DNA of 39,613 nt from a virus (taxonomy: Duplodnaviria > Caudoviricetes): positions 1 through 39,613 of the IMG/VR virus record IMGVR_UViG_3300025723_000083, one strand, 5' to 3'. The position numbers and the translations under genes were made by a program. Positions 12,047 through 36,296 of this stretch are shown here, piece by piece. The notes beneath the pieces were generated by a model, which was not told where the DNA came from, did no database searches, and saw nothing but the letters and a program-made list of their open reading frames with translations. Every line of letters starts with the position of its first letter. The stretch's first letter is position 1.

Positions 12047-15000
12047 ATGTCCGACCTAATGCCTTGGGAACAGAATTATTCAGCTCCCCAAGCTGACAAA
12101 CCAACGGACACTTCAGATCTTCCGTGGAACCAAAATTACGCAACCCCAGAGGGATCGGCTGATTCAAACAATCAATCGGAAACTCTTGCACCCTTAGCTA
12201 CACCAACGGCAAATGATGATGGTGCTTTCTGGGCGGGAGCTAGGTCGGCAGCCCGAGCAATTTTACCGGGAATAGCTGGCACTGCCGCCGCTATACCTTC
12301 CGCTGCTCTTGGAGCTTTTGCCGGTCCAGTTGGAGCTGCGGCTGCAGGCGTAGGTGGTGCAGTCGCAGGGTCAACGCTTGCTGAAAAAATTCAAACAGGT
12401 CTTGCCGATCAAATTGCTCCTGATTCATTTCTTGGCTCCAAGCAAGCCGAAGAAGATCAAGCAAATCACCCAGTTGCTTCAACGCTGGGAGGTCTACTTG
12501 GATTTGGAAGGCCAAGCGTCAAGTCGGCCATGGGAGCTGGCGAGGCATTGCTTACAAAAGGCGGTCGGGAAAGTCTGGCTCTTGCCGCAAAAAATTCCGT
12601 TCCATTTACACAAGCAAGCAGAGACTTTGCAGAAGCCGCCGCCAAAAACCCAGCGGGGGTGGAGGCAAAGGCCGCAGAACGATTCAGCCATGTGGCTGGA
12701 GCTGCCGCTGGCGTTGGTGTTGGAACCGCTCAAGGAATCGCAGCTGGAGATAGCCCGTTGCAAGCCGCAGGAATGGGGGCACTTGGTCTTGGATTTGAGC
12801 CATGGGTCGGGCCGCACGTATTCACTGGTGCTGGAAATGGCCAAGGCTCCACCAAGAAAAGTAAGCTCGATGACCTGGCTAATCAGAAGGTTGATTCTCA
12901 ACAGACCCCGCCCGCTGGAGACACAACGGGTACGGAGACAAATGTTGAAGAGAATGCCGACAATACCGATGTAGATAAGGAGAGTCTCGACAACATCAAC
13001 GATTCGATCAATAAGGCAGATCCAGCCACCAAAGATCTGGCCAACAACTTGGCAGATAATTCATCCCCTCAAACAGCGGCAGCAGTAATCGCCGCTGGAA
13101 CAACTTCTGCTTCCACACCAGCTTCAGAAACTACTACGGATAAAACATCTGTGGTTCCAGAAGTAAAAGCAGAACCTGCCGCAACACTGCAACCCGGCAT
13201 CACTTTCGTCCCAAATGCTGAAGGTCAGGTTGCATCAACCACGACCGAACCTGCTACAGCGGCAACCACAATTGCTTCAGAGCCAGCGACCGAGACTGCT
13301 ACCCCAGCACCGAAGGTTCAAGTGGCTCAAGACCCAGTAGCCGTTGCCGAACAAGCTGGCAAAACCCCCATGGAGTTCTTGCAGGAGAAGCCAGTCCTTG
13401 CTCTTGCCGAAAACCGACCACTCATGCGCAGTGGCCTCAATGTTGATAAGAAAGAGAACGGCAAAACAATTTCCTCGTTGGCCAACATCCGTGACCACGC
13501 CATCCAGACAAACAATCCAGTGTTACTGGCTGCAGTGTATCACGAGATCACTGTACGGACGGCAAAGACTCCAAATTCCAACAATTCCAATTTTCAATTC
13601 GGGGTAATAAGAGCCTACGAGCAAATGACGGGTGAGAAGCCGCTCTTGCCTGCCGACTCACAGCTTAAAGTAAAAACAACGGAGAATGGCTTCCCCAGGG
13701 TAATGAAAGGAGGGCCAGGCTTTGACCTGTCGGCCTACCAGCGTTCCGTGGAGGCACCTGTTACTCCCGCCACAGAACAAACCCCAGCTCCAAAACCTGC
13801 CGCTGAAAAGACCCCCGAAGTAACTTTGCCCGAAGAGGAGTTAGAAAATACCGAGGTTCCAGAGGGTGCTTTCACCGACGAAGAACAACCTCCGACAGAA
13901 GAAATTACTACTGCCAAAACAGCGGTCTCTTACACAAACGAAGCCCAAAAATTAGCTGAAAAACAAGGGATCAATCTGGCAGACGTACAACCAAATGCCC
14001 AAGGCACGGTTACCAAGCGTGAAGTTGCAGCTCACATAAAAGCCAATCCCCCAGAGCCAACTCCTGTCTGGCACTACGAGACTCCAGAAGCAAAAAAGTT
14101 TTTTGAAAATTTTGACGATCTGCAAAAAAAATCGGAAGAGGCAAAGACCCCCGAAGAAAAACAACAATTTGATGATCAATTGTTATCGTTGAAATCGAAA
14201 GCTAGGCAAAACCCCGAGTTGTACACACGGTGGAACCTCAACAACCCTGCGGTCAGATCGTATGATCAAGCAGGCGTTGCAACAGGAATAGCAAAGCTGG
14301 GGGGAGCAACTTGGAAAAATACCAATAGCCAAGAGACGGGATCGATGAGGCTTCGTGAGGTCAATCTTGCAGACGGAAGCACGGCTTTTGTTGATTTGGA
14401 CACGCTCCCCGAGGCAGTTGCAGATTCAATAGCTTACCCCGACCAAAGAAACCTTTCGGAAATCTCCCGTAGAACGGGGCATACCACAAAAACACTCAGG
14501 ACTTGGGAATCCCAAGGTATGCCGGGGGATACCGAAGGAGCAATCAACTGGATTGAAAAACACCAAAGAGATAAAAAAATCGCTTCTCAATCCAAGGAGG
14601 GGAAAAAATCTGCTGCTTCCTTGGATGCTACTTTGGGGGATAGCACCGCTACAATCGGGGATACTTTTGTTGGAGAAAACCCTACAAAACTTTCTACAGA
14701 AAAAGAAACCTACAGCGATTCTATTGTTAATCGAGCGGTTGCTCACATGGCAAGAACCGACATTCCTTTGTCGGACAGGTTGGCAGTTGGGAGAAAATTA
14801 CTGCAAGAAATTGATAACGGAACCAATAACGGGTTTACCGATGATCATTATAAAATAATCAGTTCGGCTTTGGATAAGCTACAAAACAACGCCTTTAAAG
14901 CTACGGAAAAACCAGCCGAGACTGAAAACAACGAAGATAAACTCAAACGACTGCAAGAGGGACACGATGCAGTAAGGGACACAATAGAACATCTTCGATC

Positions 15001-18000
15001 TAAAGGGGAAGATGTGACTCTTAAACAAGTACAAGATTTGGGGCAGCAAATGGTGGACGAGGGAATCCTTCCCCCCGGAGCAAAAAAAGTATTGGAAAAA
15101 AGAAACAAAGAAAGAGAACTCTCCCCAGAGGATTTGCTGGATGAGTTAGATTCGATCCATCAAAAATCTCAACGGGAACTTGATCGTACACCGCAAGAAA
15201 AGATGTCCCCCGAGGACTACGCCGATTATTTGGAAAAACTGCCTGAAGCGGAACGAGACGAGATTCCCACAAACGAAAATTCCGAAGGATACAATTTGTG
15301 GGAGGCTAGGAAGTTAATTTCCAAACAAAAACCCAACCAAACAAAATTTAAAAAAGTTTCCATGGATAACAGCATGGAACTGCACAACGAGTTTACCCAC
15401 ATCGCCAATGTAGATGGGGAACCTTATGGTTTAACAAACGAACTCGAAGACCCAGACGACGAAAATGCGTTTGTTTGGGGATTCCGTAGGATAGGTGATC
15501 TGAACTCAGATATGGTTGAGACTCCTTGGGGCAAAGGCAGTGAGGACGAAGTGGTGAAGATGATGCAGGAAGACCTTCAAGATCACTTGCAGGGGGAGAG
15601 TGAAATAGAAAATCAAAAAACTCCAGAATCTGTAGAGGAGCCAAGTAAAGAAAAAGAAGAAGAAGCTCCAAAAGAAGATTACCAAAAATCCAGTGACAAG
15701 GCCGATGAGTTGTTGAAAGAAGGTTATGATGCCGAGCAGCTCATGGATCGTTTTCATGTAAACGGAGAAGGTCGTGATCCGCTCCGTAAATTCCGCACTG
15801 GCACCGAGCACCTGGAGAACGAAGAGCCGCCAGCCGATCAAGTCACCCGTGGAGAACCGATCCAAACTATGCACGCTGGTGATCTTCTTGATCGTATCCA
15901 GCAAGATTTACGGGAGCGTGATAGCAAAGGCGGGATCAAAGATCGTGCCGCTCTTTCGTTTTTACGAACCATTGCCGATGTCTTTGCAAAGAACCGGGCA
16001 AGGCTAGAAGCCATACCCACCGATATTTTTCATGAACTCGAAGAGGGAACCGCTGGCGAGTACGACAAGCAGACCAAACGTATCTCACTCCCACAGGACT
16101 TCGACAGCGAGACGGCTCTTCACGAAATTTTCCACGCCCTTACCCAAGGAGGTGGGTTCCATTCCGCAGAGATCAAGAGACTCTTCTTGAAAATCCGCAA
16201 TGAAGCAGTCAAGCGCGGTTTGACTTCCGAGGAGCAGTGGACTCGTGCGGCAAATCCCGATGTCCTAGACAAGACTGCCGACGACGAGTTTCACTATGCC
16301 TTTTCATCGCACGACGAAATGATTGCGGGTCTCTTGAATCCCGACATTCGAGAGGCGTTAAACGCCATTCCGTTGAGGGACGAGGTGACGGGCAAAATGT
16401 CCAACGCATGGGAGCAACTTAAACAAAAGTTCCTCCAGCTCCTTGGCTTCCGAGTCCAGTCTGGATCAGCCTTGGATCACTATTTGACCCATGTCATGGA
16501 GCTGGTCAAACCCAGTACCGGGTCGGGTAACAAAAATTATTATTCTGCTCAATCGAATAATACGCTTGACACAAAAGGGGGTAATAGTGTAGTATATGCG
16601 AATGATTATGTCAAAAAAGACCCTTACTTCGGATCACGGACCTCTATCATACGAGGATCGCAAGAAGGCGGACAAGGTGCGCTTGAGCAGACTCCACAAA
16701 TCCAGCGAAGCGCACGAGAAGTCGCTGATCGAGGCTCAAAAGTCCGAGATGCGTTACTTGCAGTCCTTGCCGACGAGAAGCTGGTTGGAAGAGATCTTTC
16801 TAAACGCACTGAAGCGCAAGTTCGCCAAGTAAGTAACGCGCTATCGCGCTCTCTAATAGCCCCAGAAGAGGAACTCTCTCTTGGGAAGACTACAAACGAA
16901 AAGCGACTTGCGGAAGCAATACGCAAATTCCGAGAGGTTGTTCCTCTTGTTCCGTCAGAAGAGATAGATCGCCTCACCCAGTCCGAGGCAGACTCGGGAC
17001 TGATGTTGGATCAAGTCCAAGAAATGTATGAAAATGGGGCTCTTAGCGACGATAAATATGCCAAAGTTTTAAATGAATTAGCTAGGCAAAACGGCATTAA
17101 ACTTGGGAACGACCTTGATGCGGGAGCAGAGATGCTTCGTAAACACTTGGAGAACCACCAGTCTTCGGGAGCAAAATGGGTGCTGGAAGGGGAAGGAGCG
17201 GAGTCGAAGGCATATAAAGACGACCACGGCGTAGTCTATAAACTATCTCCCATAAGACAAGATGTATTGGGGATAGACTTGATAAACAAGGGGGCGCTAA
17301 ATTTAACAGACCGTCAACCAAGTCTATTTGATAGGGATGGTAGAATTCCCCTTTTTGACCGATTGATTGCAGCTAATTCTATGCCCGGACATTCGCCTAC
17401 GGAGATTGCTGGAATTACTACAGATGGGCGGATCATCCTTAAACAACCTTATTTAGGGAGAGAAGAATCTGAGACAACCAATCTAGTGCAAGCGGCAATA
17501 GATTCTGGATTGGAGATATTGCCAACGCAGAAAGAAGACCCTCGATTCGGAGGAGATGTAAATACAACGCCGATTATGTTTACGATAGGTGGAGAGCCGT
17601 GGCTCGCGTTGGACTACAACTCCCGAAACGCTCGATCTGTAGAAGGGAGATCAGTGCCTTTCGACTTGGTTTTCAAAAAACTTACCGCCAAGGAAATTGC
17701 GGCAAACAAAGACTTAAAGATTGCCGCTGATAAATTACAAAAAAACACCCTCAACTCAATTGCTCTTCGTTCAGTTAAATTCCGTAAAGCAACTACGGCT
17801 GGGGCAAATGACGCAGAACGTGAAATAGATCCCACTCGTCCAGCTCCTTTCTACAACTCTTCCACAAATGTGGAGACCACACAAAAAATGTCCGATTACA
17901 TCAATAGTGTGGGTACGGATGCCGCATACGAAAATTTGGTGAAGTACGCCAAAGACCCGACTATGGCCAGGGCACATGGATACGAAGAGAACGAAGTTCG

Positions 18001-20947
18001 TAACGGGCTGAAACAGCTTCAAGGCCAATACCAGAACAAGTACACGGAATCTCTGAAAAACCCCTCCCCTACGGCAGAAGATCTTGTAAATAGGAGAACG
18101 GCAAAATCACGCAATGAAGAGCTTACTGATCTGAACAAAATCATGGGAAGTGCGGCAGGTAAAGCCACCCAAGAGGGAGCCAATGTGGATTCTGTCAACA
18201 AGGCACCACAGGATTGGGTGGACGAGTATTTGAAATCTACTCTGGGTGGAAAACTAAATGAACTCGGAGCAGGAAAGCTCAATATCCGTCAACTTGTTGA
18301 TGGGATAAAAGCCATCAAACAATCGGCTGCGGAGATGACGATTGATGGTGCCACCAAGCTTCTTAGTAAATTTGGAATTGTTGAACCCGAGCGCTTGGCA
18401 CAACTGAAAACAATTTTGGGAGATACCGACACTACCCGAGCAGATCTTAAATCTGTTTTGGCGGAGATGATCGGAGGAAACAACCCAGAAAAAGTCGAGG
18501 CGGCAACTCAGCAGCTGACTGCTTTGTACAATACGGCTTCGCAAAAACTCGCTAGGGTGCAACTTCCCAAGGAGGTATTTGCCTCTTATGCAGGCAACGG
18601 AACAAAAGGTTCGGCTTCTGTAAGTGATAAGCTAGGCAAATACATTGGACTTGGGAGATTCAATGAAGATCAGATTCACAAGACCCTGTTGGAAACAATC
18701 GGAATCACGGGATACGATGCGGATTTTGTGAAAGCGATCCGAGACGAAGCCGCCCGGATTCAAACTCTGCCCAAAAATTCTGCACCCTACAATGATGCCT
18801 TGGCGGATTTCCAAGGTGCACTGGGTAACGAAATTTTAAGTCAACAGTGGAAAGGATCGGGCGTACTTGGAAAAGTTAAAATTGGTCTTGTTAAGATTTT
18901 ACCCGATTTGTTCCGCAGTGCTATTCTTACTGGACCTCAAACACTTCTTACCCACGGGTTTTCGGGAGGTCTTAATGTGCGACTCGAAGCGGGATTTGAA
19001 GCACTGGGTAGATACCAAGCGGCTTTGAATGAAGGTAGATCAGCGTCCGAAGCGGCTGGATACTTTAAAGACTACTTTGAATCTATGTTTGGCGGGGACA
19101 AAGGAGCTAGAGGTCGTCCTCTCGGAGGAGAGTTTTGGAGAGCCTTACGCACGGGTAAAGCCGCCGTAGGAACGAGCAAAGGAATCGGTCTTCGAGGTAG
19201 TGATGCCCTTGGGAGCAGCAATTTTGGTGGATCTGGAATCGGAGGCAAAGTTTTCCGATTTTACTCAAAGGCTATGGGAGTTCTTCCACGAACTCTTCTT
19301 GCATTCGACACTGTGAATGCGGGATCTGGAGAAGAACTTAACCAGAGATGGGCAACTCGGGCAGCTCTTTTAAATGCAGGTAGCAACGCCGAAGAAGTGG
19401 CTACCGAAATGAAACGCATTTTTGCTCCATCCACGGAGCAGTTGCAACCTGCCTACGACAAGTTGGCAGAAGAAGTCAGCAAAGGGTATTTCAACGGAGT
19501 GACTGGTTTTCAGAAAAAAGCTTTGTTGGCAGAACGATTGGAACAACTTCACAAATCAACACGTCCTTTGGAAGCCCTCAAACAAGCTGAGGCTGGAACA
19601 AAAGCCACAGAAGACTGGACAATGAAAGGAGAGCAGCATGGTCTTTGGGGTGCCCTTACAGGTGCAATTGGAAGTGCAAACAGAAAGACGGGCGTAACGG
19701 GTTTTGTGTTTCCGTTCACCCGTATTATCAGTGCTTTGATGAATACCTCGTTGAGCTATACTCCGCTGGGATTGTTGCGGGCGAACAATGCTTCCCTCTC
19801 CAACCTTTTCCTCCCAGAAAACTCAAAGTACGCATGGCCTAAGATGGTCAAGGGATCGCCAGAACAACTTGCTCTTACAAGTAAATCTATCCTTGGTTCT
19901 TCAATTGGCTTGGCCATCACGACAATGTTCCTAAAAGAACTTTCGGATGAAGAACAGACGGGAAAAAAGCCAGCGTTTATGTTCTATGGTGCCGGTCCGA
20001 AAGACCCCGCAAAACGAGGTGAATGGATGGCTGCGGGCGGGAGACCCAACACATTTGCGGTGGGTGATACTTATCTGCCGTATAAAGCTATACCCGGCAT
20101 TAACCTTTTGGGAACAATGCTTGGGACACTTCACGACTATGTGACTTACGAAAATCCGCTCCCCAAAATGAAGGGCGGGCAGATGCCTACCGCAGAGGAG
20201 ATCGCTAAACACAATAATTGGGTCTCTAGCGACAAGGCGTACCGCATTGCTACGGCGATTGCAATGAGCCCTCTTGAGCAACACTTCTTAAGTGGAGCCA
20301 AGAATTTGATCGACATCATGCACGACCCTCAGGGTGCATCGGCTCCAAGGGCAGTGGTTAACCAATTAGTCGGAACAGCCAGTCAATTCACTAACCCCAC
20401 TGTGTTTCGCACTGTTCGCGCTTTGCTTGGAGGCATTAGGCAACCAGAAGGGAATTCCCCCACTCTCGATACATACAATTCGTTGGACGGAAAAGCCGCT
20501 CAATTCATTCCGTTCTACGCTGGGTTTAATACACCATCACTTAATGTGTTAGGAGACCCGATCCAAAAGAAACCTCTTGATGCCATTACAGATAGGTGGT
20601 TGTTTTCTTCAACTACTGCTCCAGACCCAATTATTTCGCCGTTAGTAAACAATGGGTTGTTTTTACCTGGACCGAAGAAGAATTCTCCAATCATGGTTAA
20701 CAACCAAGGTAAACTTGCTACCTTGAATGATGCGGGCGACGATGCTTGGAGAGCCTACGTGGTGGCCAGAGGTAGTTTCTTAAAACAAGTGCTGTCTCCA
20801 AGCGTGGTACAGCAGCTAATCAACATGGATCGTATCCAAGCGCAATCTTATCTGGACGGCTCTGACATTGGTGGGGCGGCTTCTCACTATGCGAGAGATA
20901 TGGTGGAAGCAATGATCCAAAGCGGTCAAATCAAAGTCAACGGCTAG
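12047..20947 (+). CDS. giant polyvalent internal virion/ejection protein (zincin peptidase, kinase-like domain, LPD-type C-terminus)
   Basis: 2966 aa; N-terminal PWE repeats and Gly/Ala hydrophobic helices; HEIFH at 16121; GEGAES/VYKL/DYNSRN/PFD kinase motifs at 17189-17665; FVFPF…YTPLG and GGRPNTFAVGD in the C-terminal region. Confidence 0.8.
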   Translation: MSDLMPWEQNYSAPQADKPTDTSDLPWNQNYATPEGSADSNNQSETLAPLATPTANDDGAFWAGARSAARAILPGIAGTAAAIPSAALGAFAGPVGAAAAGVGGAVAGSTLAEKIQTGLADQIAPDSFLGSKQAEEDQANHPVASTLGGLLGFGRPSVKSAMGAGEALLTKGGRESLALAAKNSVPFTQASRDFAEAAAKNPAGVEAKAAERFSHVAGAAAGVGVGTAQGIAAGDSPLQAAGMGALGLGFEPWVGPHVFTGAGNGQGSTKKSKLDDLANQKVDSQQTPPAGDTTGTETNVEENADNTDVDKESLDNINDSINKADPATKDLANNLADNSSPQTAAAVIAAGTTSASTPASETTTDKTSVVPEVKAEPAATLQPGITFVPNAEGQVASTTTEPATAATTIASEPATETATPAPKVQVAQDPVAVAEQAGKTPMEFLQEKPVLALAENRPLMRSGLNVDKKENGKTISSLANIRDHAIQTNNPVLLAAVYHEITVRTAKTPNSNNSNFQFGVIRAYEQMTGEKPLLPADSQLKVKTTENGFPRVMKGGPGFDLSAYQRSVEAPVTPATEQTPAPKPAAEKTPEVTLPEEELENTEVPEGAFTDEEQPPTEEITTAKTAVSYTNEAQKLAEKQGINLADVQPNAQGTVTKREVAAHIKANPPEPTPVWHYETPEAKKFFENFDDLQKKSEEAKTPEEKQQFDDQLLSLKSKARQNPELYTRWNLNNPAVRSYDQAGVATGIAKLGGATWKNTNSQETGSMRLREVNLADGSTAFVDLDTLPEAVADSIAYPDQRNLSEISRRTGHTTKTLRTWESQGMPGDTEGAINWIEKHQRDKKIASQSKEGKKSAASLDATLGDSTATIGDTFVGENPTKLSTEKETYSDSIVNRAVAHMARTDIPLSDRLAVGRKLLQEIDNGTNNGFTDDHYKIISSALDKLQNNAFKATEKPAETENNEDKLKRLQEGHDAVRDTIEHLRSKGEDVTLKQVQDLGQQMVDEGILPPGAKKVLEKRNKERELSPEDLLDELDSIHQKSQRELDRTPQEKMSPEDYADYLEKLPEAERDEIPTNENSEGYNLWEARKLISKQKPNQTKFKKVSMDNSMELHNEFTHIANVDGEPYGLTNELEDPDDENAFVWGFRRIGDLNSDMVETPWGKGSEDEVVKMMQEDLQDHLQGESEIENQKTPESVEEPSKEKEEEAPKEDYQKSSDKADELLKEGYDAEQLMDRFHVNGEGRDPLRKFRTGTEHLENEEPPADQVTRGEPIQTMHAGDLLDRIQQDLRERDSKGGIKDRAALSFLRTIADVFAKNRARLEAIPTDIFHELEEGTAGEYDKQTKRISLPQDFDSETALHEIFHALTQGGGFHSAEIKRLFLKIRNEAVKRGLTSEEQWTRAANPDVLDKTADDEFHYAFSSHDEMIAGLLNPDIREALNAIPLRDEVTGKMSNAWEQLKQKFLQLLGFRVQSGSALDHYLTHVMELVKPSTGSGNKNYYSAQSNNTLDTKGGNSVVYANDYVKKDPYFGSRTSIIRGSQEGGQGALEQTPQIQRSAREVADRGSKVRDALLAVLADEKLVGRDLSKRTEAQVRQVSNALSRSLIAPEEELSLGKTTNEKRLAEAIRKFREVVPLVPSEEIDRLTQSEADSGLMLDQVQEMYENGALSDDKYAKVLNELARQNGIKLGNDLDAGAEMLRKHLENHQSSGAKWVLEGEGAESKAYKDDHGVVYKLSPIRQDVLGIDLINKGALNLTDRQPSLFDRDGRIPLFDRLIAANSMPGHSPTEIAGITTDGRIILKQPYLGREESETTNLVQAAIDSGLEILPTQKEDPRFGGDVNTTPIMFTIGGEPWLALDYNSRNARSVEGRSVPFDLVFKKLTAKEIAANKDLKIAADKLQKNTLNSIALRSVKFRKATTAGANDAEREIDPTRPAPFYNSSTNVETTQKMSDYINSVGTDAAYENLVKYAKDPTMARAHGYEENEVRNGLKQLQGQYQNKYTESLKNPSPTAEDLVNRRTAKSRNEELTDLNKIMGSAAGKATQEGANVDSVNKAPQDWVDEYLKSTLGGKLNELGAGKLNIRQLVDGIKAIKQSAAEMTIDGATKLLSKFGIVEPERLAQLKTILGDTDTTRADLKSVLAEMIGGNNPEKVEAATQQLTALYNTASQKLARVQLPKEVFASYAGNGTKGSASVSDKLGKYIGLGRFNEDQIHKTLLETIGITGYDADFVKAIRDEAARIQTLPKNSAPYNDALADFQGALGNEILSQQWKGSGVLGKVKIGLVKILPDLFRSAILTGPQTLLTHGFSGGLNVRLEAGFEALGRYQAALNEGRSASEAAGYFKDYFESMFGGDKGARGRPLGGEFWRALRTGKAAVGTSKGIGLRGSDALGSSNFGGSGIGGKVFRFYSKAMGVLPRTLLAFDTVNAGSGEELNQRWATRAALLNAGSNAEEVATEMKRIFAPSTEQLQPAYDKLAEEVSKGYFNGVTGFQKKALLAERLEQLHKSTRPLEALKQAEAGTKATEDWTMKGEQHGLWGALTGAIGSANRKTGVTGFVFPFTRIISALMNTSLSYTPLGLLRANNASLSNLFLPENSKYAWPKMVKGSPEQLALTSKSILGSSIGLAITTMFLKELSDEEQTGKKPAFMFYGAGPKDPAKRGEWMAAGGRPNTFAVGDTYLPYKAIPGINLLGTMLGTLHDYVTYENPLPKMKGGQMPTAEEIAKHNNWVSSDKAYRIATAIAMSPLEQHFLSGAKNLIDIMHDPQGASAPRAVVNQLVGTASQFTNPTVFRTVRALLGGIRQPEGNSPTLDTYNSLDGKAAQFIPFYAGFNTPSLNVLGDPIQKKPLDAITDRWLFSSTTAPDPIISPLVNNGLFLPGPKKNSPIMVNNQGKLATLNDAGDDAWRAYVVARGSFLKQVLSPSVVQQLINMDRIQAQSYLDGSDIGGAASHYARDMVEAMIQSGQIKVNG
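16566..16595 (+). promoter_or_regulatory. internal sigma70-like promoter inside the giant ORF
   Basis: TTGACA (16566-16571), 18-nt spacer, TAGTAT (16590-16595), within an AT-rich patch. Confidence 0.55.
16602..16832 (+). CDS. overprinted small basic helical protein (76 aa, +1 frame), possibly leaderless
   Basis: ATG 7 nt after the -10 box; ORF open for 76 codons; helical amphipathic sequence. Confidence 0.45.
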   Translation: MIMSKKTLTSDHGPLSYEDRKKADKVRLSRLHKSSEAHEKSLIEAQKSEMRYLQSLPTRSWLEEIFLNALKRKFAK

Positions 20948-24310: not shown

Positions 24311-24742
24311 GTGATACATTCGCACGATTTTGTGAGCATACTTGGCGACCAAATAATTGAACTACGGGCTAAGGGAATGAGCTTCAAAGCCATTGCCAAA
24401 GAGATACCATGTTCATTAAGTACGGTTGCCTATTTTCTTAGCGACAACCAAAAAGAAAAAACGGCTAAAAGAAACCGAACTCGCCGCCAACGAATTCTTC
24501 AAGAACTGAAGGAGACTTTTGGTGGCGAATGTGCAGTCTGTGGGTACAAAACCTGCATCACTGCTCTCGAGTTTGATCACTTGGCTCCCAGCACCAAGAC
24601 TGCCGAGGTTTCTGCTCTTCGTAACCATGCGGCCTCTGCAAAAGCCGAGGCTGAAAAATGTATTTTGCTATGTTGCCGTTGTCACCGGGAGCGACACGCT
24701 GGGTTGCTTGATATTGGTGCTTACCTGGAGCCGTCCGAATGA
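24311..24742 (+). CDS. HTH + HNH (Zn-finger) endonuclease
   Basis: N-terminal HTH (LRAKGMSFKAIAKEIPCSLSTV); CAVCGY…LEFDH…CILLCCRCHRERH. Confidence 0.75.
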   Translation: MIHSHDFVSILGDQIIELRAKGMSFKAIAKEIPCSLSTVAYFLSDNQKEKTAKRNRTRRQRILQELKETFGGECAVCGYKTCITALEFDHLAPSTKTAEVSALRNHAASAKAEAEKCILLCCRCHRERHAGLLDIGAYLEPSE

Positions 24743-25615: not shown

Positions 25616-25644
25616 ATTTTATGCGTGGTTGATTAAACCATCAA
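25616..25644 (-). promoter_or_regulatory. sigma70-like promoter overlapped by a palindromic operator
   Basis: TTGATG (25644-25639), 17 nt, TAAAAT (25621-25616); TGGTTTAATCAACCA overlaps the -35 box and spacer. Confidence 0.6.
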
Positions 25645-27251
25645 GCATTAAGTGTCGTCTCGAAGTTGGACAATGAGTGTTCGATAAGCATGGGTGCATT
25701 GGCTTGGCACCACTCCGTTGCCGAGACATCTGAGTTCGTGAGTTCGGTTGTCATAGGTGTTGCACAGCTCGGCATAACCCAACCCACTGGCAGACCCATC
25801 AAAGCCTCCACAAACCTCGGATTCAACTTGGCAGTTATCTTCTCCTTCTGTTGAGCCGTCGAGTCCGACTTCAATGCTTTGTCTCTGGTCGGAATTCCCA
25901 CAATCGAAGGATGATTGCTCAGTCCAGGTTGACCGAAGTTCGGTTGATTGCCGATCTTCCCCGCTTCCATTGCCGTCGGTGTCGGCCACGAGGCTTGCTT
26001 GTAGATCTCCACTGAGGTCGGGTCTACCTGCTCTCGCAAGTTCGCTGGCGAAGTTCGTCCCTTGCGGGTCGTCGTGGCTTGACGAAGTAACGCTTCGGGT
26101 GAACGGAGATCCATGTGATCCAGCGTATTCGGAGTCGCCCAAGCCGCCATCCTCGCTAGATCCCGACCCAAACATTTCTGGTTGCTTTGAGTCCCCGTCC
26201 TCACCCCCTCGATGTGGTCTGATGCTTGAGGGGTTGCCCAGTTGTTGGGCTCGTATTTCCCCTCGATGGTTGCCGCCAGACCCTTGCCGTAGCCCGGAGA
26301 GGTTGTCCCCGGTTCCTGAGCTCTGGGAGTCGGCCAGTTGTTGCCCACCTGAATGGCCTGCGACTTGAGTGGAAGATGAAGGTTCACCCCTTTCTCCGCT
26401 TGCGTTGCCGCACGCTTCTCCCACTGCTCCTTGGTCTCGGGTTGATTCCAGTCGAAGGCCGAGGGAGTCGCCCACTTGGCGTGAACGTGATCCCTCAACT
26501 TGTACTTCCCCGCCGTCCCCGGCCGCATCTCCATGATGCCCCCTTCCCCGTCCGACGAGCTTGGTGTTCTCCAATACTCTTGGGGGTTCCCAGTCGTGTT
26601 GTCTTTCGCCGGGTCTAGCAGGCCACCTGGAAGGTAGGCTTGTACTACCACATCCAGCGTGTCCATGGACACTTTGCCCCTGCGTATCCGACCACCTGAG
26701 TAGCCGCCCTTGTGATCCCGAGTCGATGCGGTCGGCCAAGATGAAGACTCTTTTGCGTTGGTGGGGAGCACCTCCTGACCCTGCTTCAGACGCCGAGAAA
26801 ATTCCGAACGTCGTTTTGTAACCAAGCTCTTCCAAGTCGCTGATGACTGAGTTGAGTCCCATCGATACGTGCCCGTCCACATTTTCAAAGAAACATTGGT
26901 GGGGTCGCATAAGTTCAATTCCGTCTTTGATCCAAGGCCAGAGGTGTCTTGGGTCTGACTTGCCGAGGCGGTTGCCAGCGGCACTGAATGGCTGACAGGG
27001 ATAGCCTCCACTGAGGATAGATACTCGGTCACGAAAGAGTTCCCAAGGGAAGGCTTTAAGGTCCGTGTGGATAGGGGCGACATCCAGTTGGCCTTCTTCA
27101 ATGCGCTTGAGAAGGACCGAGATCGGGAAGGCTTCCCGTTCACAGTAAGCGATTGTTCGTAGAGCTGGCAGAGCTGCTCTGATTCCCAAGTCAATGCCTC
27201 CGTATCCAGAGCACAAGCTGACGTGTGTAATTGTTTCGGTAGTATCCACAT
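25641..27251 (-). CDS. overlapping MTase beta-like chain with 7 WxTP modules and motif IX
   Basis: 536 codons open in a second frame; repeated W(P/A/R)T(P/A)xxx(D/E); LNPRFVEALMGLPVGW (motif IX). Confidence 0.8.
   Translation of the reverse strand: MWILPKQLHTSACALDTEALTWESEQLCQLYEQSLTVNGKPSRSRSFSSALKKANWMSPLSTRTLKPSLGNSFVTEYLSSVEAIPVSHSVPLATASASQTQDTSGLGSKTELNLCDPTNVSLKMWTGTYRWDSTQSSATWKSLVTKRRSEFSRRLKQGQEVLPTNAKESSSWPTASTRDHKGGYSGGRIRRGKVSMDTLDVVVQAYLPGGLLDPAKDNTTGNPQEYWRTPSSSDGEGGIMEMRPGTAGKYKLRDHVHAKWATPSAFDWNQPETKEQWEKRAATQAEKGVNLHLPLKSQAIQVGNNWPTPRAQEPGTTSPGYGKGLAATIEGKYEPNNWATPQASDHIEGVRTGTQSNQKCLGRDLARMAAWATPNTLDHMDLRSPEALLRQATTTRKGRTSPANLREQVDPTSVEIYKQASWPTPTAMEAGKIGNQPNFGQPGLSNHPSIVGIPTRDKALKSDSTAQQKEKITAKLNPRFVEALMGLPVGWVMPSCATPMTTELTNSDVSATEWCQANAPMLIEHSLSNFETTLNA
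25648..27249 (-). CDS. C5-cytosine DNA methyltransferase, catalytic (alpha-like) chain
   Basis: Motif I SLCSGYGG, IV GYPCQPFS, VI ENV, VIII HQRKRVF, X LGNGVVP; GTG start. Confidence 0.85.
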   Translation of the reverse strand: MDTTETITHVSLCSGYGGIDLGIRAALPALRTIAYCEREAFPISVLLKRIEEGQLDVAPIHTDLKAFPWELFRDRVSILSGGYPCQPFSAAGNRLGKSDPRHLWPWIKDGIELMRPHQCFFENVDGHVSMGLNSVISDLEELGYKTTFGIFSASEAGSGGAPHQRKRVFILADRIDSGSQGRLLRWSDTQGQSVHGHAGCGSTSLPSRWPARPGERQHDWEPPRVLENTKLVGRGRGHHGDAAGDGGEVQVEGSRSRQVGDSLGLRLESTRDQGAVGEACGNASGERGEPSSSTQVAGHSGGQQLADSQSSGTGDNLSGLRQGSGGNHRGEIRAQQLGNPSSIRPHRGGEDGDSKQPEMFGSGSSEDGGLGDSEYAGSHGSPFTRSVTSSSHDDPQGTNFASELARAGRPDLSGDLQASLVADTDGNGSGEDRQSTELRSTWTEQSSFDCGNSDQRQSIEVGLDGSTEGEDNCQVESEVCGGFDGSASGLGYAELCNTYDNRTHELRCLGNGVVPSQCTHAYRTLIVQLRDDT

Positions 27252-27290
27252 TTGTATGGGGTTGGTAGGTTAGTGCGTGGTTGATGATAC

Positions 27291-27503
27291 CTAGGAAATA
27301 AAAGCCGTTTCGTTCTCTACTAAAATTTCGAGAGCGTCCCCGGCAATGACGCAGAGGGGCTGGGACTTCCTAGCTCGGGTTGCCGTGGGCACATTGCACA
27401 CGATATTTTTAACAAGGTGACAAGCACCTTTGAAGTGAACCGTCAGGATGTTGCACCCCTGTGATCGGGATGCGGGTTTGTTGTAGTGATACCAGAACTT
27501 CAT
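27291..27503 (-). CDS. conserved hypothetical phage protein
   Basis: MKFWYHYNKPASR…TVHFKG…CNVPT…QP; start after an A/C-rich leader. Confidence 0.65.
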   Translation of the reverse strand: MKFWYHYNKPASRSQGCNILTVHFKGACHLVKNIVCNVPTATRARKSQPLCVIAGDALEILVENETAFIS

Positions 27504-27555
27504 TGTGGGTTGGGTTAATGTGTGGTTGATGATACCTGTTGACAAGTTGATTATT

Positions 27556-30549: not shown

Positions 30550-31821
30550 TTAACCGCCCACAGGAATGTGGACGGTATCGCCGAAGGGAGCGGTCAGCCG
30601 CTCGTTGTTGTAGACGCACCAGATGGTGGGGAATGGCCAAGCGACATCGGGGAAGCTGCCCTCAAGATCGGTCAGATAGATGACGACTCGTGGGTCGATG
30701 CCACGGCGGAGGATCTCCTCGCCGACGGGACGGAAGTCGGTTCCGCCACCGCCACGAAGAGTCAACTCGATGGGAGACTGATCGTGATACTCCTGCACAT
30801 CGGTGATCGCCGCATCACACTGAATCACGCTGACCTTGGTAGGTTTGCACCTAGCGATGAGCGAGTTGATCTCGGACTGGAAAGAGCTGACAACCTCGGG
30901 GACTCCGTAGATAGAGCCAGAGGTATCGACTGCAATGACTACTTCGCCAAGGGTCTCGTCGTGAAGATCGGGGAGGACGATGTCGTCAGGTAGGAAACGG
31001 CGGTCAGGCTTGTTCCAGCTATAGTCGTTGGCGCTGGTCTGGTCGATGAACCGCTCCAAGATCTGTTGCCAAGGAACCTTGGGGTTGACGAGATCTTGAA
31101 CCAATGCCTCGACACAACCGGGCACGCTACCCTGCATCTTGGCAGAGGTAGCAGCTTGGACTAAACGACGCTCCCACTCCTTCTCCATCTCGTCGGCGGT
31201 AAACTCGTCGGTCGCCGCTTGTGACTCGAACTCGCCCCAGCCGCCTTCGGATTGGGTGCGGGGGGCGTTGGGGTCGGGCTTACCCTTGCCACCCTTGGAG
31301 GTGGGGTCGGGTTGACCATTGCCGCCGTTGCCGTCGCCATCCTCGGTGTCGTCACCCTCGCCACCCTCTGGCTCGTCGGGTTCGTCTTGAGGCTCGGGCG
31401 GTGGCTGTGGCTTGCGGATGTCGGCAAGGATCTGCTCGCACGACATATCGTCGTACTTGTGATCCAAGCAACCGCCGTCGGGCAGGGGCAACGCCAAGGC
31501 ACCAGCTTCCTTGTTGTAGTTATCGAGGAAGTTGTTGATGGCGTAGTCGCCAGCAATGTTGCCGTCCTTGTCTCGGGGCAAGCGAGTCAAGTGACCAAGG
31601 GCAGGGTGCATGACCTCATGCACTAGCAAACCAGCAACTTGTGCCTCGGATAGCGAGTTGATGAAGTCGGGATTGTAACGGATGACCACACCATTGGTGC
31701 AGGCAGTCGGTACGCTCGGGTCTTCGATCCGTGGCATCTGCAACAGGAGCGTTGCAAAGAACGGATGGTCGAGAACGATCTGGGTGGTAGCGGAGGCTAC
31801 TTTATCTGAGGCGATGGACAT
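30550..31821 (-). CDS. metallopeptidase + vWA domain protein (DUF2201-like)
   Basis: PTACTNG, HEVMH, acidic linker, MIDAS VDTSGS, GGGGTDF, YLTDL; start set at MSIASD. Confidence 0.85.
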   Translation of the reverse strand: MSIASDKVASATTQIVLDHPFFATLLLQMPRIEDPSVPTACTNGVVIRYNPDFINSLSEAQVAGLLVHEVMHPALGHLTRLPRDKDGNIAGDYAINNFLDNYNKEAGALALPLPDGGCLDHKYDDMSCEQILADIRKPQPPPEPQDEPDEPEGGEGDDTEDGDGNGGNGQPDPTSKGGKGKPDPNAPRTQSEGGWGEFESQAATDEFTADEMEKEWERRLVQAATSAKMQGSVPGCVEALVQDLVNPKVPWQQILERFIDQTSANDYSWNKPDRRFLPDDIVLPDLHDETLGEVVIAVDTSGSIYGVPEVVSSFQSEINSLIARCKPTKVSVIQCDAAITDVQEYHDQSPIELTLRGGGGTDFRPVGEEILRRGIDPRVVIYLTDLEGSFPDVAWPFPTIWCVYNNERLTAPFGDTVHIPVGG

Positions 31822-31849
31822 AAGGTTTAAGGGTTGAGTTGGTTGAGGG

Positions 31850-32875
31850 TTAGGAGGCGTGACCGAAGACCTCGGGGTTGTCCGTGATCCAAGTGGTGAA
31901 CGCTGGGGTCGCACTGAGGCTGGACTTGGAAGTGACTGCCGTCTTGACAGCGAACACCTCGAACTCCTTGGCCATGCGGCTGACATAGGTGACGAAGGCT
32001 CCCATCATCTTGGGGGTAACCTTCTTGGAGAGACCCGCACAGGTGGCGTAGATCGTGGAAGGATCGGTCGGCACCTCGGCGGTGTCGGGCGACAGGAGCA
32101 CGGCATCGAGATTCGGGAGCTTCTCGTAGATACCGAGGAAGCCGAGGAACTCGGTGGATGCGGCCTGACCGAGAGTGCCGTCCAGCAACAGGTGACGGAC
32201 GGTGCGGTCGGAGCAGGTCTCCACAATCTTGGACGCCTTGTCCCAAGTGCGGGGTGAGGCAAAGTTGCTGACGCCGTCCCACTTGGCACCATTGAAGGTG
32301 GTCAAGAGATCGGGGCGGAAGCGGATGAAGGCGATGACGATAGGGTCAACGCCGTTCTTCTGTGCCCACTTAGTCCAGCTCTCAAGGTCAAGCTTGATGC
32401 GGATGTTGACGATGCGGTTGACCACAGCCGACGAGAGCTTCTCGATGTTGACTCGATCCTCTGCACGATTGCCGAGCAGACAGACGAAGGCGTCATCGGG
32501 CAACTTGTGGTCGCCGACCCGGTTGTCGTTGAGGAGCTGCAACGCCACATTCTGGACAGAACGAGTGGCGCAGTTGAACTCTTCCAAGGCGATGACTGGC
32601 GTGGCGGTCTTCGGCCAGAAGGCTGGCTTACTGAACCGCATGGTCTTCTCACCTGCCTCGTCGGTGTGGAGATACGGGAAGCCCTGCACATCCTGCGGTG
32701 CGTAGTAGGCGAGTCGTGCATCGACGAACTCGGCACCGATGGAGTTGGCGTACTCGGCGACGACGGCGGACTTGCCGACGCCAGGCTGACCTTGGATGAA
32801 GGGTCGGAGACCTGCGGCGTGGCAGGACTTGAGGACACCCTTGAGTTGGGTTGGGGTTGCTTCGATGGTTTGCAT
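31850..32875 (-). CDS. MoxR-like AAA+ ATPase
   Basis: Walker A GQPGVGKS, Walker B ALEEFN, LGNR, NR arginine finger, SPRTW. Confidence 0.85.
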   Translation of the reverse strand: MQTIEATPTQLKGVLKSCHAAGLRPFIQGQPGVGKSAVVAEYANSIGAEFVDARLAYYAPQDVQGFPYLHTDEAGEKTMRFSKPAFWPKTATPVIALEEFNCATRSVQNVALQLLNDNRVGDHKLPDDAFVCLLGNRAEDRVNIEKLSSAVVNRIVNIRIKLDLESWTKWAQKNGVDPIVIAFIRFRPDLLTTFNGAKWDGVSNFASPRTWDKASKIVETCSDRTVRHLLLDGTLGQAASTEFLGFLGIYEKLPNLDAVLLSPDTAEVPTDPSTIYATCAGLSKKVTPKMMGAFVTYVSRMAKEFEVFAVKTAVTSKSSLSATPAFTTWITDNPEVFGHAS

Positions 32876-32949
32876 AATTTGTTTAAGGTTGAACTGACTT
32901 GGTGTTGGTTGATGTTGAACTGACTTGATTGTTGCGTGGTTGATGAAAC

Positions 32950-34110
32950 CTACCAGCCGAGCTTGGCGAGGATGTCCTCACCAGAGGTCTCGGCTAGAGC
33001 CTTCTCTATAAGGAAATCTTCACGATCCGCAGGGTCGGAGATGTGTGCCAATGCGGCATCGGCCACCGCATCGATCTGCTCATCGGTCGGCTCTGTGATT
33101 GTTCTTTCATCAAGAAGAGTCATGGCTGCCTTCTGCATGGCGATACCTTCGGGAGAGCAGTTTTGAGCCTGAGCCTCCATCTCTGCGAATATCTCGCTTG
33201 CGGTTAGTTTCCTATTGCTATCGGGTGCAGGTGGCGGGATCTCCCCACCCAAGTGCTCGATGATCCGGGCACAATCGCCAGCGGCAATGCCACGGAACGG
33301 GGTGCCCTCTTCACGAGCCGCATCGGGATTGATACGCAGGTGATTGTTGATCTCGGTGACGGCGGCGTCGATCACATCGTCCTCCAAGACATTCAATCCC
33401 TTGGCTCGCTCGGCGGCTTCCCACACATTGGTGAACAGCGTGTCTCGGAAGGTCGTGTTGGGATTCTGCAAGGAGGCCGACATCTTGATGAGCGGTTGGA
33501 GCAAGACCTCCTTGATGTAGGGGACCATCGAGGCGATCTGATCGTTGAAGGTCTCGTTGACATCGTTCATCACGGCGGCAGCGATGTCGCCGAAGACCCC
33601 GAGCATATTGCCGTTCGGCGTGCCCACTTGGGCGGTGCGAACCTCAGCGGCGAACTTGCTGATAACTTGATCGACGGGGGGCAAGTCGTCGTCGTTGTAC
33701 ATCGTGCCCAACCGAACCTGTGCTTCGGCTCGGGCAATGTTGTACTCGTTGGCGACCTCCTTGAGCAGAAGGTCACGCTTGGCCAGCTCGATCTTCACCT
33801 CTCGGGTCATGTCGATGTACTTGGAGGCGGGAATGAAGTAGGTGCCGTCACCCCATGGTGCTCCGTACTTACGGGGAATTGTATAGATGTAAGCATCTAA
33901 CTTACGGATTCTTTTGATGGTGTCGGCGTTGAGGATCTTCTTGTAGACCGCCGCCGAATCCTTATCGGTGATGCCAGCGTCGGCTCTTGCCTTGGCACTG
34001 GCTTCCTTGTCGATCTTCTGGGTGCCGAAGCGTCGCAGTGTGATCGTGTAGAGTACGCCACCCGAGCAGACCCGGTTGGCTAGTTCGTCGTTAGTTAGCA
34101 GTGGGGTCAT
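32950..34110 (-). CDS. DUF3150-like protein associated with the AAA/vWA module
   Basis: 386 aa; KKIL…PWGDGTYFIP…LGTMYNDDDLP…FRDTL pattern and gene neighbourhood. Confidence 0.55.
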   Translation of the reverse strand: MTPLLTNDELANRVCSGGVLYTITLRRFGTQKIDKEASAKARADAGITDKDSAAVYKKILNADTIKRIRKLDAYIYTIPRKYGAPWGDGTYFIPASKYIDMTREVKIELAKRDLLLKEVANEYNIARAEAQVRLGTMYNDDDLPPVDQVISKFAAEVRTAQVGTPNGNMLGVFGDIAAAVMNDVNETFNDQIASMVPYIKEVLLQPLIKMSASLQNPNTTFRDTLFTNVWEAAERAKGLNVLEDDVIDAAVTEINNHLRINPDAAREEGTPFRGIAAGDCARIIEHLGGEIPPPAPDSNRKLTASEIFAEMEAQAQNCSPEGIAMQKAAMTLLDERTITEPTDEQIDAVADAALAHISDPADREDFLIEKALAETSGEDILAKLGW

Positions 34111-36240: not shown

Positions 36241-36296
36241 AGTTTTTGTTTAAGGTGTCCAACTTGTTGCATGGTTGATGCAACCACTGCAAGTTT

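Follow-up and report, generated by a model that had tools for sequence, protein, structure and literature searches.

How can one stretch of phage DNA carry two long, overlapping reading frames on the same strand, and what function would be served by the array of tryptophan- and threonine-centred modules that one of them encodes? This question is raised by a methylase locus of IMGVR_UViG_3300025723_000083, a 39.6-kb virus record present in freshwater and lake metagenomes, the whole of which (39,613 nt) is referred to here as the window. The locus lies on the minus strand among small early-type genes and provides the single PF00145 match of the entire record. Frame A (27249-25648; GTG start, 533 aa) encodes the catalytic chain of a C5 cytosine methyltransferase, with motifs I-VIII, a long linker and motif X, and frame B (27251-25641; ATG start, 536 aa) an overprinted, putative second chain composed of an N-terminal arm, seven modules and a motif-IX-like helix. 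As read from the sequence, the two starts overlap (27247-27251), the ATG of B and the GTG of A being 2 nt apart, and in 92 of 148 related loci the M-W-I-x-P start shows the identical 5-mer. An earlier note on this DNA had read the modules as specificity cassettes serving one catalytic chain; our analysis places them on the second, overprinted chain, together with motif IX and an N-terminal arm under selection.

Frame A is stop-free over all seven modules, in agreement with the earlier note, according to which every unit leaves it open. When B (aa 172-475) was shuffled synonymously, frame A stayed stop-free in 0/5000 trials (mean of 10.2 stops), and synonymous shuffling of A (aa 1-172) left frame B stop-free in 10/5000, indicating that the double opening is not due to chance; the third frame contains 10 stops vs 8.2 expected. 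No indels in the stretch were listed in contigs from four public runs (30/30 bins covered in one, a possible source of the record, and 19-29/30 in the other three), and no RNA dataset with the stretch was found among those listed.

Several features of the surrounding DNA deserve to be recorded in their own right. A 22-nt motif, likely a phage promoter or operator, occurs in five copies between genes of the minus-strand block (25618-25639, 27270-27291, 27515-27536, 32929-32950 and 36264-36285), one of them upstream of the methylase starts by 20 nt, another just downstream of the methylase. Minus-strand gene starts between 21600 and 37300, those of the methylase included, have A/C-rich leaders, mostly without a Shine-Dalgarno motif. 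An HTH-HNH endonuclease gene (24311-24742, plus strand) faces the methylase from 900 bp away on the opposite strand; HNH genes are usual in phages, and the neighbouring genes, inspected by eye for a conserved partner endonuclease of a Type II restriction-modification system, vary among the 7 loci listed. A MoxR-like AAA ATPase adjoins a DUF2201 metallopeptidase/vWA gene (30550-32875, minus strand), and a 2966-aa ORF (12047-20947, plus strand) lies in the virion-type block. Across the window CCGG is strongly depleted (106 occurrences vs 335 expected), as are CGCG, ACGT, GCGC and GGCC, a depletion that may stem from avoidance of restriction sites or from the decay of cytosines once methylated, and from which target motifs cannot be named.

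The identity of chain A is straightforward: it matches PF00145 (E 2.2e-23, aa 8-177) and phrog_363 (E 1.7e-47), and its profile matches M.HhaI (E 3.5e-28). Its motifs, labelled by the established I-X numbering, follow the order of C5 cytosine DNA methyltransferases: I, IV (PC), VI (ENV), VIII and X. Motif IV with the catalytic cysteine (GYPCQ; 26992-27006, minus strand) contains a PCQ invariant in 128 aligned rows; motif VIII (QRKRVF; 26743-26760, minus strand) is followed directly by the module array; and motif X (CLGNGVVP; 25705-25728, minus strand) possesses the invariant G510 and N511. Motif IX is absent from chain A, and no conserved candidate target-recognition domain (TRD) is present in it between motifs VIII and X, besides a short island of 17 residues inside the array (W-P-A-R-P...W-E-P-P-R-V; 26625-26575, minus strand).

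Substitution counts from close pairs (taken on spanning trees, and hence not fully independent) reveal that selection changes frame along the gene. Synonymous changes outnumber replacements in frame A over the catalytic zone (2784 vs 1097) and in frame B over the module region (1529 vs 239), where frame A displays the reverse (171 vs 1564); over the motif-IX helix, B accumulated 452 synonymous vs 29 replacement changes. Within the island the pattern switches back, 94 pairs giving, in A, 232 synonymous and 79 replacement changes and, in B, 61 and 311. Selection thus acts on A in the catalytic zone, on B in the modules and motif IX, and again on A in the island. Frame A is a passenger between motifs VIII and X with the exception of these 17 residues, so that its previous description as an inert linker holds over the modules but not over 26625-26575. 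Irrespective of function, the locus is a clean example of selection alternating between two frames of one gene.

What, then, is chain B? It matches phrog_1008 (E 3.1e-25) and has 1898 homologues among 7996 candidates scored. Pfam and NCBIfam yielded no match, and phmmer against the PDB no meaningful one. A search of the ESM Atlas returned just unnamed viral clusters (TM about 0.33). Its N-terminal arm (26739-27251, minus strand) overlies the catalytic motifs of A and is selected at the residue level: of the 65 wobble columns of A considered in 82 loci, mostly four-fold, 23 show low entropy, and these frozen sites fix B residues W2, L4, P5, L60, R63, L65, W77, V144, R148 and R154. At the 19 columns of the predicted interface mean wobble entropy is 0.48, as against 1.17 for the remaining 45, the sequences being related and not independent. 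At the other end of the array, the motif-IX-like helix (LNPRFVEALMGLPVGW; frame B aa 476-491; 25779-25826, minus strand) is proposed on the basis of its selection, of the structural model and of an L-x-P...L spacing matching that of motif IX in M.H2I; it also stands between the modules and motif X in single-chain relatives. Profiles of modules plus IX, with or without X, matched no solved methyltransferase in the PDB, and a Pfam search of six IX+X chains gave no match. In one chain B relative (P0145) the N-terminal arm carries a long insertion resembling a LAGLIDADG homing endonuclease.

For the complex, a model combining A(1-228) and A(470-533) with B(1-500) attained a score of 0.87, the best of 3 controls reaching 0.02; the mark applied is passed by 116/157 solved pairs and by 2/215 mismatched pairs. 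At least 80% of contacts agree between runs, with partner pLDDT of at least 49. In the model, B 1-8, 54-81 and 129-162 contact the catalytic domain, B 473-500 packs against motif X and the A island, and A 221-228, in the region of the island, is predicted to touch motif IX. The confident part of the interface includes no B residue past 172, residues outside that part being uncertain, and the modules are left unplaced; likewise, AlphaFold of chain B alone returned a pLDDT of 54.6 and a pTM of 0.31, with the modules mostly below 50. Since the halves of a split gene may pass by likeness to solved structures, the model supports binding of A and B, short of proof. We consider it very probable that the locus encodes a two-chain C5 methyltransferase.

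The layout is shared by relatives. A survey of 201 sequences (200 loci and the window) left 148 scored loci, after 23 duplicates, 20 sequences without the motif-IX pattern and 10 without motif IV had been dropped. The frame offset is +2 in 146/148, B is open from before motif IV to motif IX in 146/148, and A is open from IV to X in 131/148 by the strict pattern. Fifteen layout exceptions comprise five pattern misses with A open, six loci in which motif X has passed to frame B, two with A interrupted and X still in A, one frameshifted locus and one with an early stop in B. An independent scan by a motif-IX DNA pattern, for which we estimate 6500 matching IMG/VR stretches, retrieved 120 loci, of which 50 with too little upstream DNA and 3 without motif IV were dropped; the same offset was found in 66 of the 67 scored, motif X lying in frame A in 58 and frame B in 4. 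In two surveyed loci (L106 and L130) frame A ends straight after motif VIII and motif X follows further on, still in frame A, which denotes either a three-piece enzyme or a pseudogene. In a single case, L157 (1657-3898), which carries the longest array (13 modules), frame A ends beyond its island and motif X lies in frame B, leaving these modules free from the need for two open frames.

Other arrangements occur as well. Motifs IX and X are both on chain B in 78/119 hits, and the mycobacteriophage Nyxis pair gp78/gp77 is split with IX+X on gp77. Single chains uniting motifs I-VIII, modules, IX and X account for 5/119 hits, all one-member clusters in which frameshift artefacts are possible; a better single-chain case is gp65 of the cultured mycobacteriophage DLane, with four modules. 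One single-chain relative is predicted to fold like M.HhaI (Z 25.0, rmsd 2.4, 220 residues aligned), and in AlphaFold of the single-chain P0211 the catalytic core and IX/X are confident and residues 181-273 (linker and both modules) fall below 50. The DLane gp65 gene (L324:1201-2595) also contains an unannotated 132-codon frame with an arm-like stretch and two further modules, and three relatives (P0147, P0223 and L191) possess an additional module after motif IX and before motif X, that is, at a second insertion site. Frame A alone is annotated in GenBank in the three cultured phages checked first. As DLane and Nyxis are in culture and carry the module family, the family is amenable to experiment.

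The modules follow the pattern W-(P/A)-T-P-x-A-x-D, then a loop rich in G/K/R, then an L-x-x-x-(V/A/I) element, the latter found in 81% of 313 types vs 24% in shuffles. In the window, the seven 8-mers and seven L-x-x-x-V-like hexamers quoted previously were all recovered in a single stop-free minus-strand frame, B; six of the modules read W-x-T-P as had been proposed, but the first reads WPTA. Their units, said to span about 30-55 aa, measure 55, 33, 46, 32, 33, 51 and 54 aa from first to last. On the minus strand, module 1 (WPTASTRD; aa 172-226 with spacer, 26574-26738) is of a type found in 12 other loci, with catalytic identity down to 36%; module 2 (WRTPSSSD; aa 227-259, 26475-26573) is of a type found in 15 others, with 21/22 residues matching in loci that have a catalytic domain of 40-41% identity to the window's; and module 3 (WATPSAFD; aa 260-305, 26337-26474) is of a type found in 10. 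Module 4 (WPTPRAQE; aa 306-337, 26241-26336) has no second copy among 147 loci at a threshold of 15 of 22 residues. The types of module 5 (WATPQASD; aa 338-370, 26142-26240), module 6 (WATPNTLD; aa 371-421, 25989-26141) and module 7 (WPTPTAME; aa 422-475 with the spacer to motif IX, 25827-25988) recur in 10, 32 and 24 other loci, respectively. Mutually, the seven are dissimilar, with at most 8/22 residues in common.

The 756 modules of 214 arrays sort into 325 types, with no array containing any type twice (0/214; null mean 10.9, 0/2000 shuffles as low); with looser thresholds, 1 and 8 arrays with a repeat were counted vs 12.7 and 27.6 under the null. Absence of repetition fits distinct functions for the types; it could alternatively result from rapid deletion of direct repeats. 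One group of the module clustering (cluster 5, 16 segments) was rejected as a false module derived from the N-terminal arm. The modules had been proposed to be swappable cassettes, and this is borne out: relative to two close relatives, whole-module indels start and finish at or beside W codons, the 148 loci display 139 architectures, and of the 165 type pairs that co-occur, 23 are found in both orders. Nor is module number invariant among homologs, ranging from 1 to 13 in the 148-locus survey (the 1s including undercounts) and from 1 to 6 in the 67-locus scan (one 0 being a counting miss); one-module members exist, and no scored locus is without a module. Entire modules are thus acquired, lost and rearranged between related phages, which makes the arrays mosaic.

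Are these modules target-recognition domains? Lying between motifs VIII and IX, they occupy the position of a TRD, and the threonine of the last module is at most 50 aa from motif IX in 178/214 arrays; the TL dipeptide of known enzymes is described as lying within 50 aa of that motif (PMC2413257). Threonine is present in 760/763 modules, a count to be read knowing that the detection pattern largely demanded it. A module-core profile lacking the Thr column ranked four TL-like sites of M.H2I (M72412.1), sites defined by our own reading, at 1, 2, 3 and 6 of 22 threonines, ranks 4 and 5 being shifted windows of one TL-like site; columns 1 and 4 were dropped after the consensus had been seen, and with these kept the ranks are 1, 2, 5 and 6. 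The single site of each of two Thurquoise phage enzymes ranks 1 of 23. The full TL consensus of PMC2413257, however, is matched by 0/763 modules: its upstream aromatic-basic element occurs in 1/763, and the residue after the threonine is P in 611/763 and I/L/V in 41 (PT in 429 of 763). The units also start just two residues before the threonine, whereas base recognition in TL enzymes is reported to lie partly N-terminal to TL (PMC2413257). No model gave the modules a confident fold (pLDDT mostly <50). The idea of a TRD-like threonine motif thus stands as regards position and the likeness of the cores to M.H2I sites, and is only partly upheld as regards the consensus, so that the modules would work like TL-centred TRDs without the family consensus. 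We regard them as probable DNA-reading units.

Orphan phage methylases serve in protection from restriction, which is the basis for the purpose proposed here. Under the reading that we favour, and judge somewhat likelier to be right than wrong, the locus would encode a two-chain phage C5 methyltransferase in which the seven exchangeable modules are alternative target-recognition units, so that several motifs are methylated and the phage is shielded from several restriction enzymes. Both chains would be translated from the adjacent ATG and GTG starts; the N-terminal arm and motif-IX helix of B would dock on the catalytic domain and motif X of A; any one module could then swing into the small-domain position, where its threonine would take the part of that of TL and the G/K/R-rich loop behind it would read the bases. 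Recombination across the conserved W-x-T-P codons would swap modules between phages, and an incoming module would have to be stop-free in frame A too, except where motif X has been relocated to frame B. That one array yields several distinct methylated motifs we infer with a likelihood slightly better than even.

The strongest competitor, though fairly unlikely in our view, retains the two-chain enzyme and the TRD origin of the modules but has one position active at a time, or overlapping relaxed specificities, the array being a reservoir. The modules are indeed minimal (mostly 25-50 aa) and without an N-TL element, and other prophage C5 enzymes, of about 700 aa and not necessarily kin to the present family, are described as relaxed in E. 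coli (PMC3925955, PMC5537653). A mere reservoir is nevertheless difficult to reconcile with purifying selection at every array position, which extends to the loops (855 synonymous vs 340 replacement changes within module types), with free variation in order and with types that are never repeated per array.

It is improbable that the modules, instead of reading DNA, are short peptides which a tolerant loop of chain B carries and which bind proteins of host defence or some other protein of the phage. The missing confident fold, the lack of the full TL consensus and the modules after motif IX in P0147 and P0223 would suit such peptides. Such a role would, however, leave the enzyme with no conserved candidate TRD in chain A between VIII and X, the short island aside, and would not account for at least one module in every scored locus or for cores that single out TL-like sites; as for modules beyond motif IX, the TRDs of M.phiBssHII too are at separated locations, according to a title cited in PMC8936443.

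Rather less probable still is a single chain arising by a programmed shift from A to B once motif VIII has been read, the B start remaining unused. Natural single-chain forms exist and imply that a fused product can fold, but B is open and selected at the residue level across the whole catalytic zone from codon 2, and with motif X of the window in frame A two shifts would be needed. The last alternative, that frame B serves no protein function and stems from neutral expansion of repeats or from chance overlap, would agree with the missing Pfam and NCBIfam matches and with GenBank often annotating frame A alone, and is contradicted by a synonymous excess in B of six-to-one over the modules and fifteen-to-one over motif IX and by arrays whose modules are not copies of one another, making it highly improbable.

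Returning to the reading of the modules as alternative recognition units, its broadest form would be that thousands of phages share more than 300 interchangeable DNA-recognition cassettes of 30-50 residues, hidden in a second frame and recombined at the W-x-T-P anchor, each adding one protected motif; we place this just short of an even chance. Were it true, phages would possess a programmable, expandable anti-restriction system and, with it, a natural cassette-to-motif code for 5mC writers. Should each module correspond to one specificity, phage methylation repertoires would become readable from sequence, hundreds of natural swap experiments would be available for the hard problem of predicting C5 specificity, and the cassettes would be ready parts for designed 5mC writers.

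How does the locus compare with known systems? The proven two-chain precedent is M.EcoHK31I (YGGCCR), an alpha/beta C5 methyltransferase whose small chain is described as nested in another frame and bearing motif IX, with motifs I-VIII plus X, and also a single TRD, on the large chain; the N-terminus of the small chain is required for association (PMC2836561, PMC3404938). The window likewise has its second chain in another frame and its motifs split as I-VIII+X and IX, and the chain B arm, selected and predicted to be in contact, parallels that N-terminus. Unlike M.EcoHK31I, as far as the available text describes it, the window locus is an orphan phage gene in which B (536 aa) runs the full length of the gene from a start 2 nt ahead of that of A and carries threonine modules as a variable array, the TRD of M.EcoHK31I being on the large chain; the likeness noted here is one of layout. 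In M.AquI, motifs I-VIII are reported on one chain and IX-X on the other (PMC3404938), an arrangement resembled by the relatives with X in frame B (6/148 loci, 4/67 loci and Nyxis gp78/gp77) and from which the window, keeping X in frame A, differs.

Besides SPR and phi3T, multispecific C5 methyltransferases of Bacillus phages include M.H2I, in which the four TL-like sites are 41-47 aa apart. Like M.H2I, the window possesses tandem, exchangeable, threonine-centred units between motifs VIII and IX (32-55 aa each), but enzymes of the M.H2I type are single-frame monomers with T-L/V cores, whereas the window is split over two frames, with W-x-T-P cores, a loop and an L-x-x-x-V helix. Tandem TRDs are described for the Bacillus phage enzymes (PMC8936443, PMC2413257), and unlike in these, hundreds of module types circulate in the family of the window. 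Frequent within-gene recombination and hidden frames are reported for an Actinobacteriophage methylase family (Gosselin et al. 2023, Arsenault et al. 2025; PMC9957025, PMC11855218), and the accessible portions of these papers concern inteins and HNH insertions, not a module array or second chain; there, too, the genes are phage methylases, and DLane gp65 and Nyxis gp77 carry modules of the window's kind, although family identity is not implied. In the open-access literature, which covers neither subscription papers nor REBASE, we found no account of the module family or of a nested chain united with tandem TRDs. Both ingredients are known, the nested second chain from M.EcoHK31I and the tandem TRDs from Bacillus phages; their union and the module family are apparently new, and the locus that combines them is widespread.
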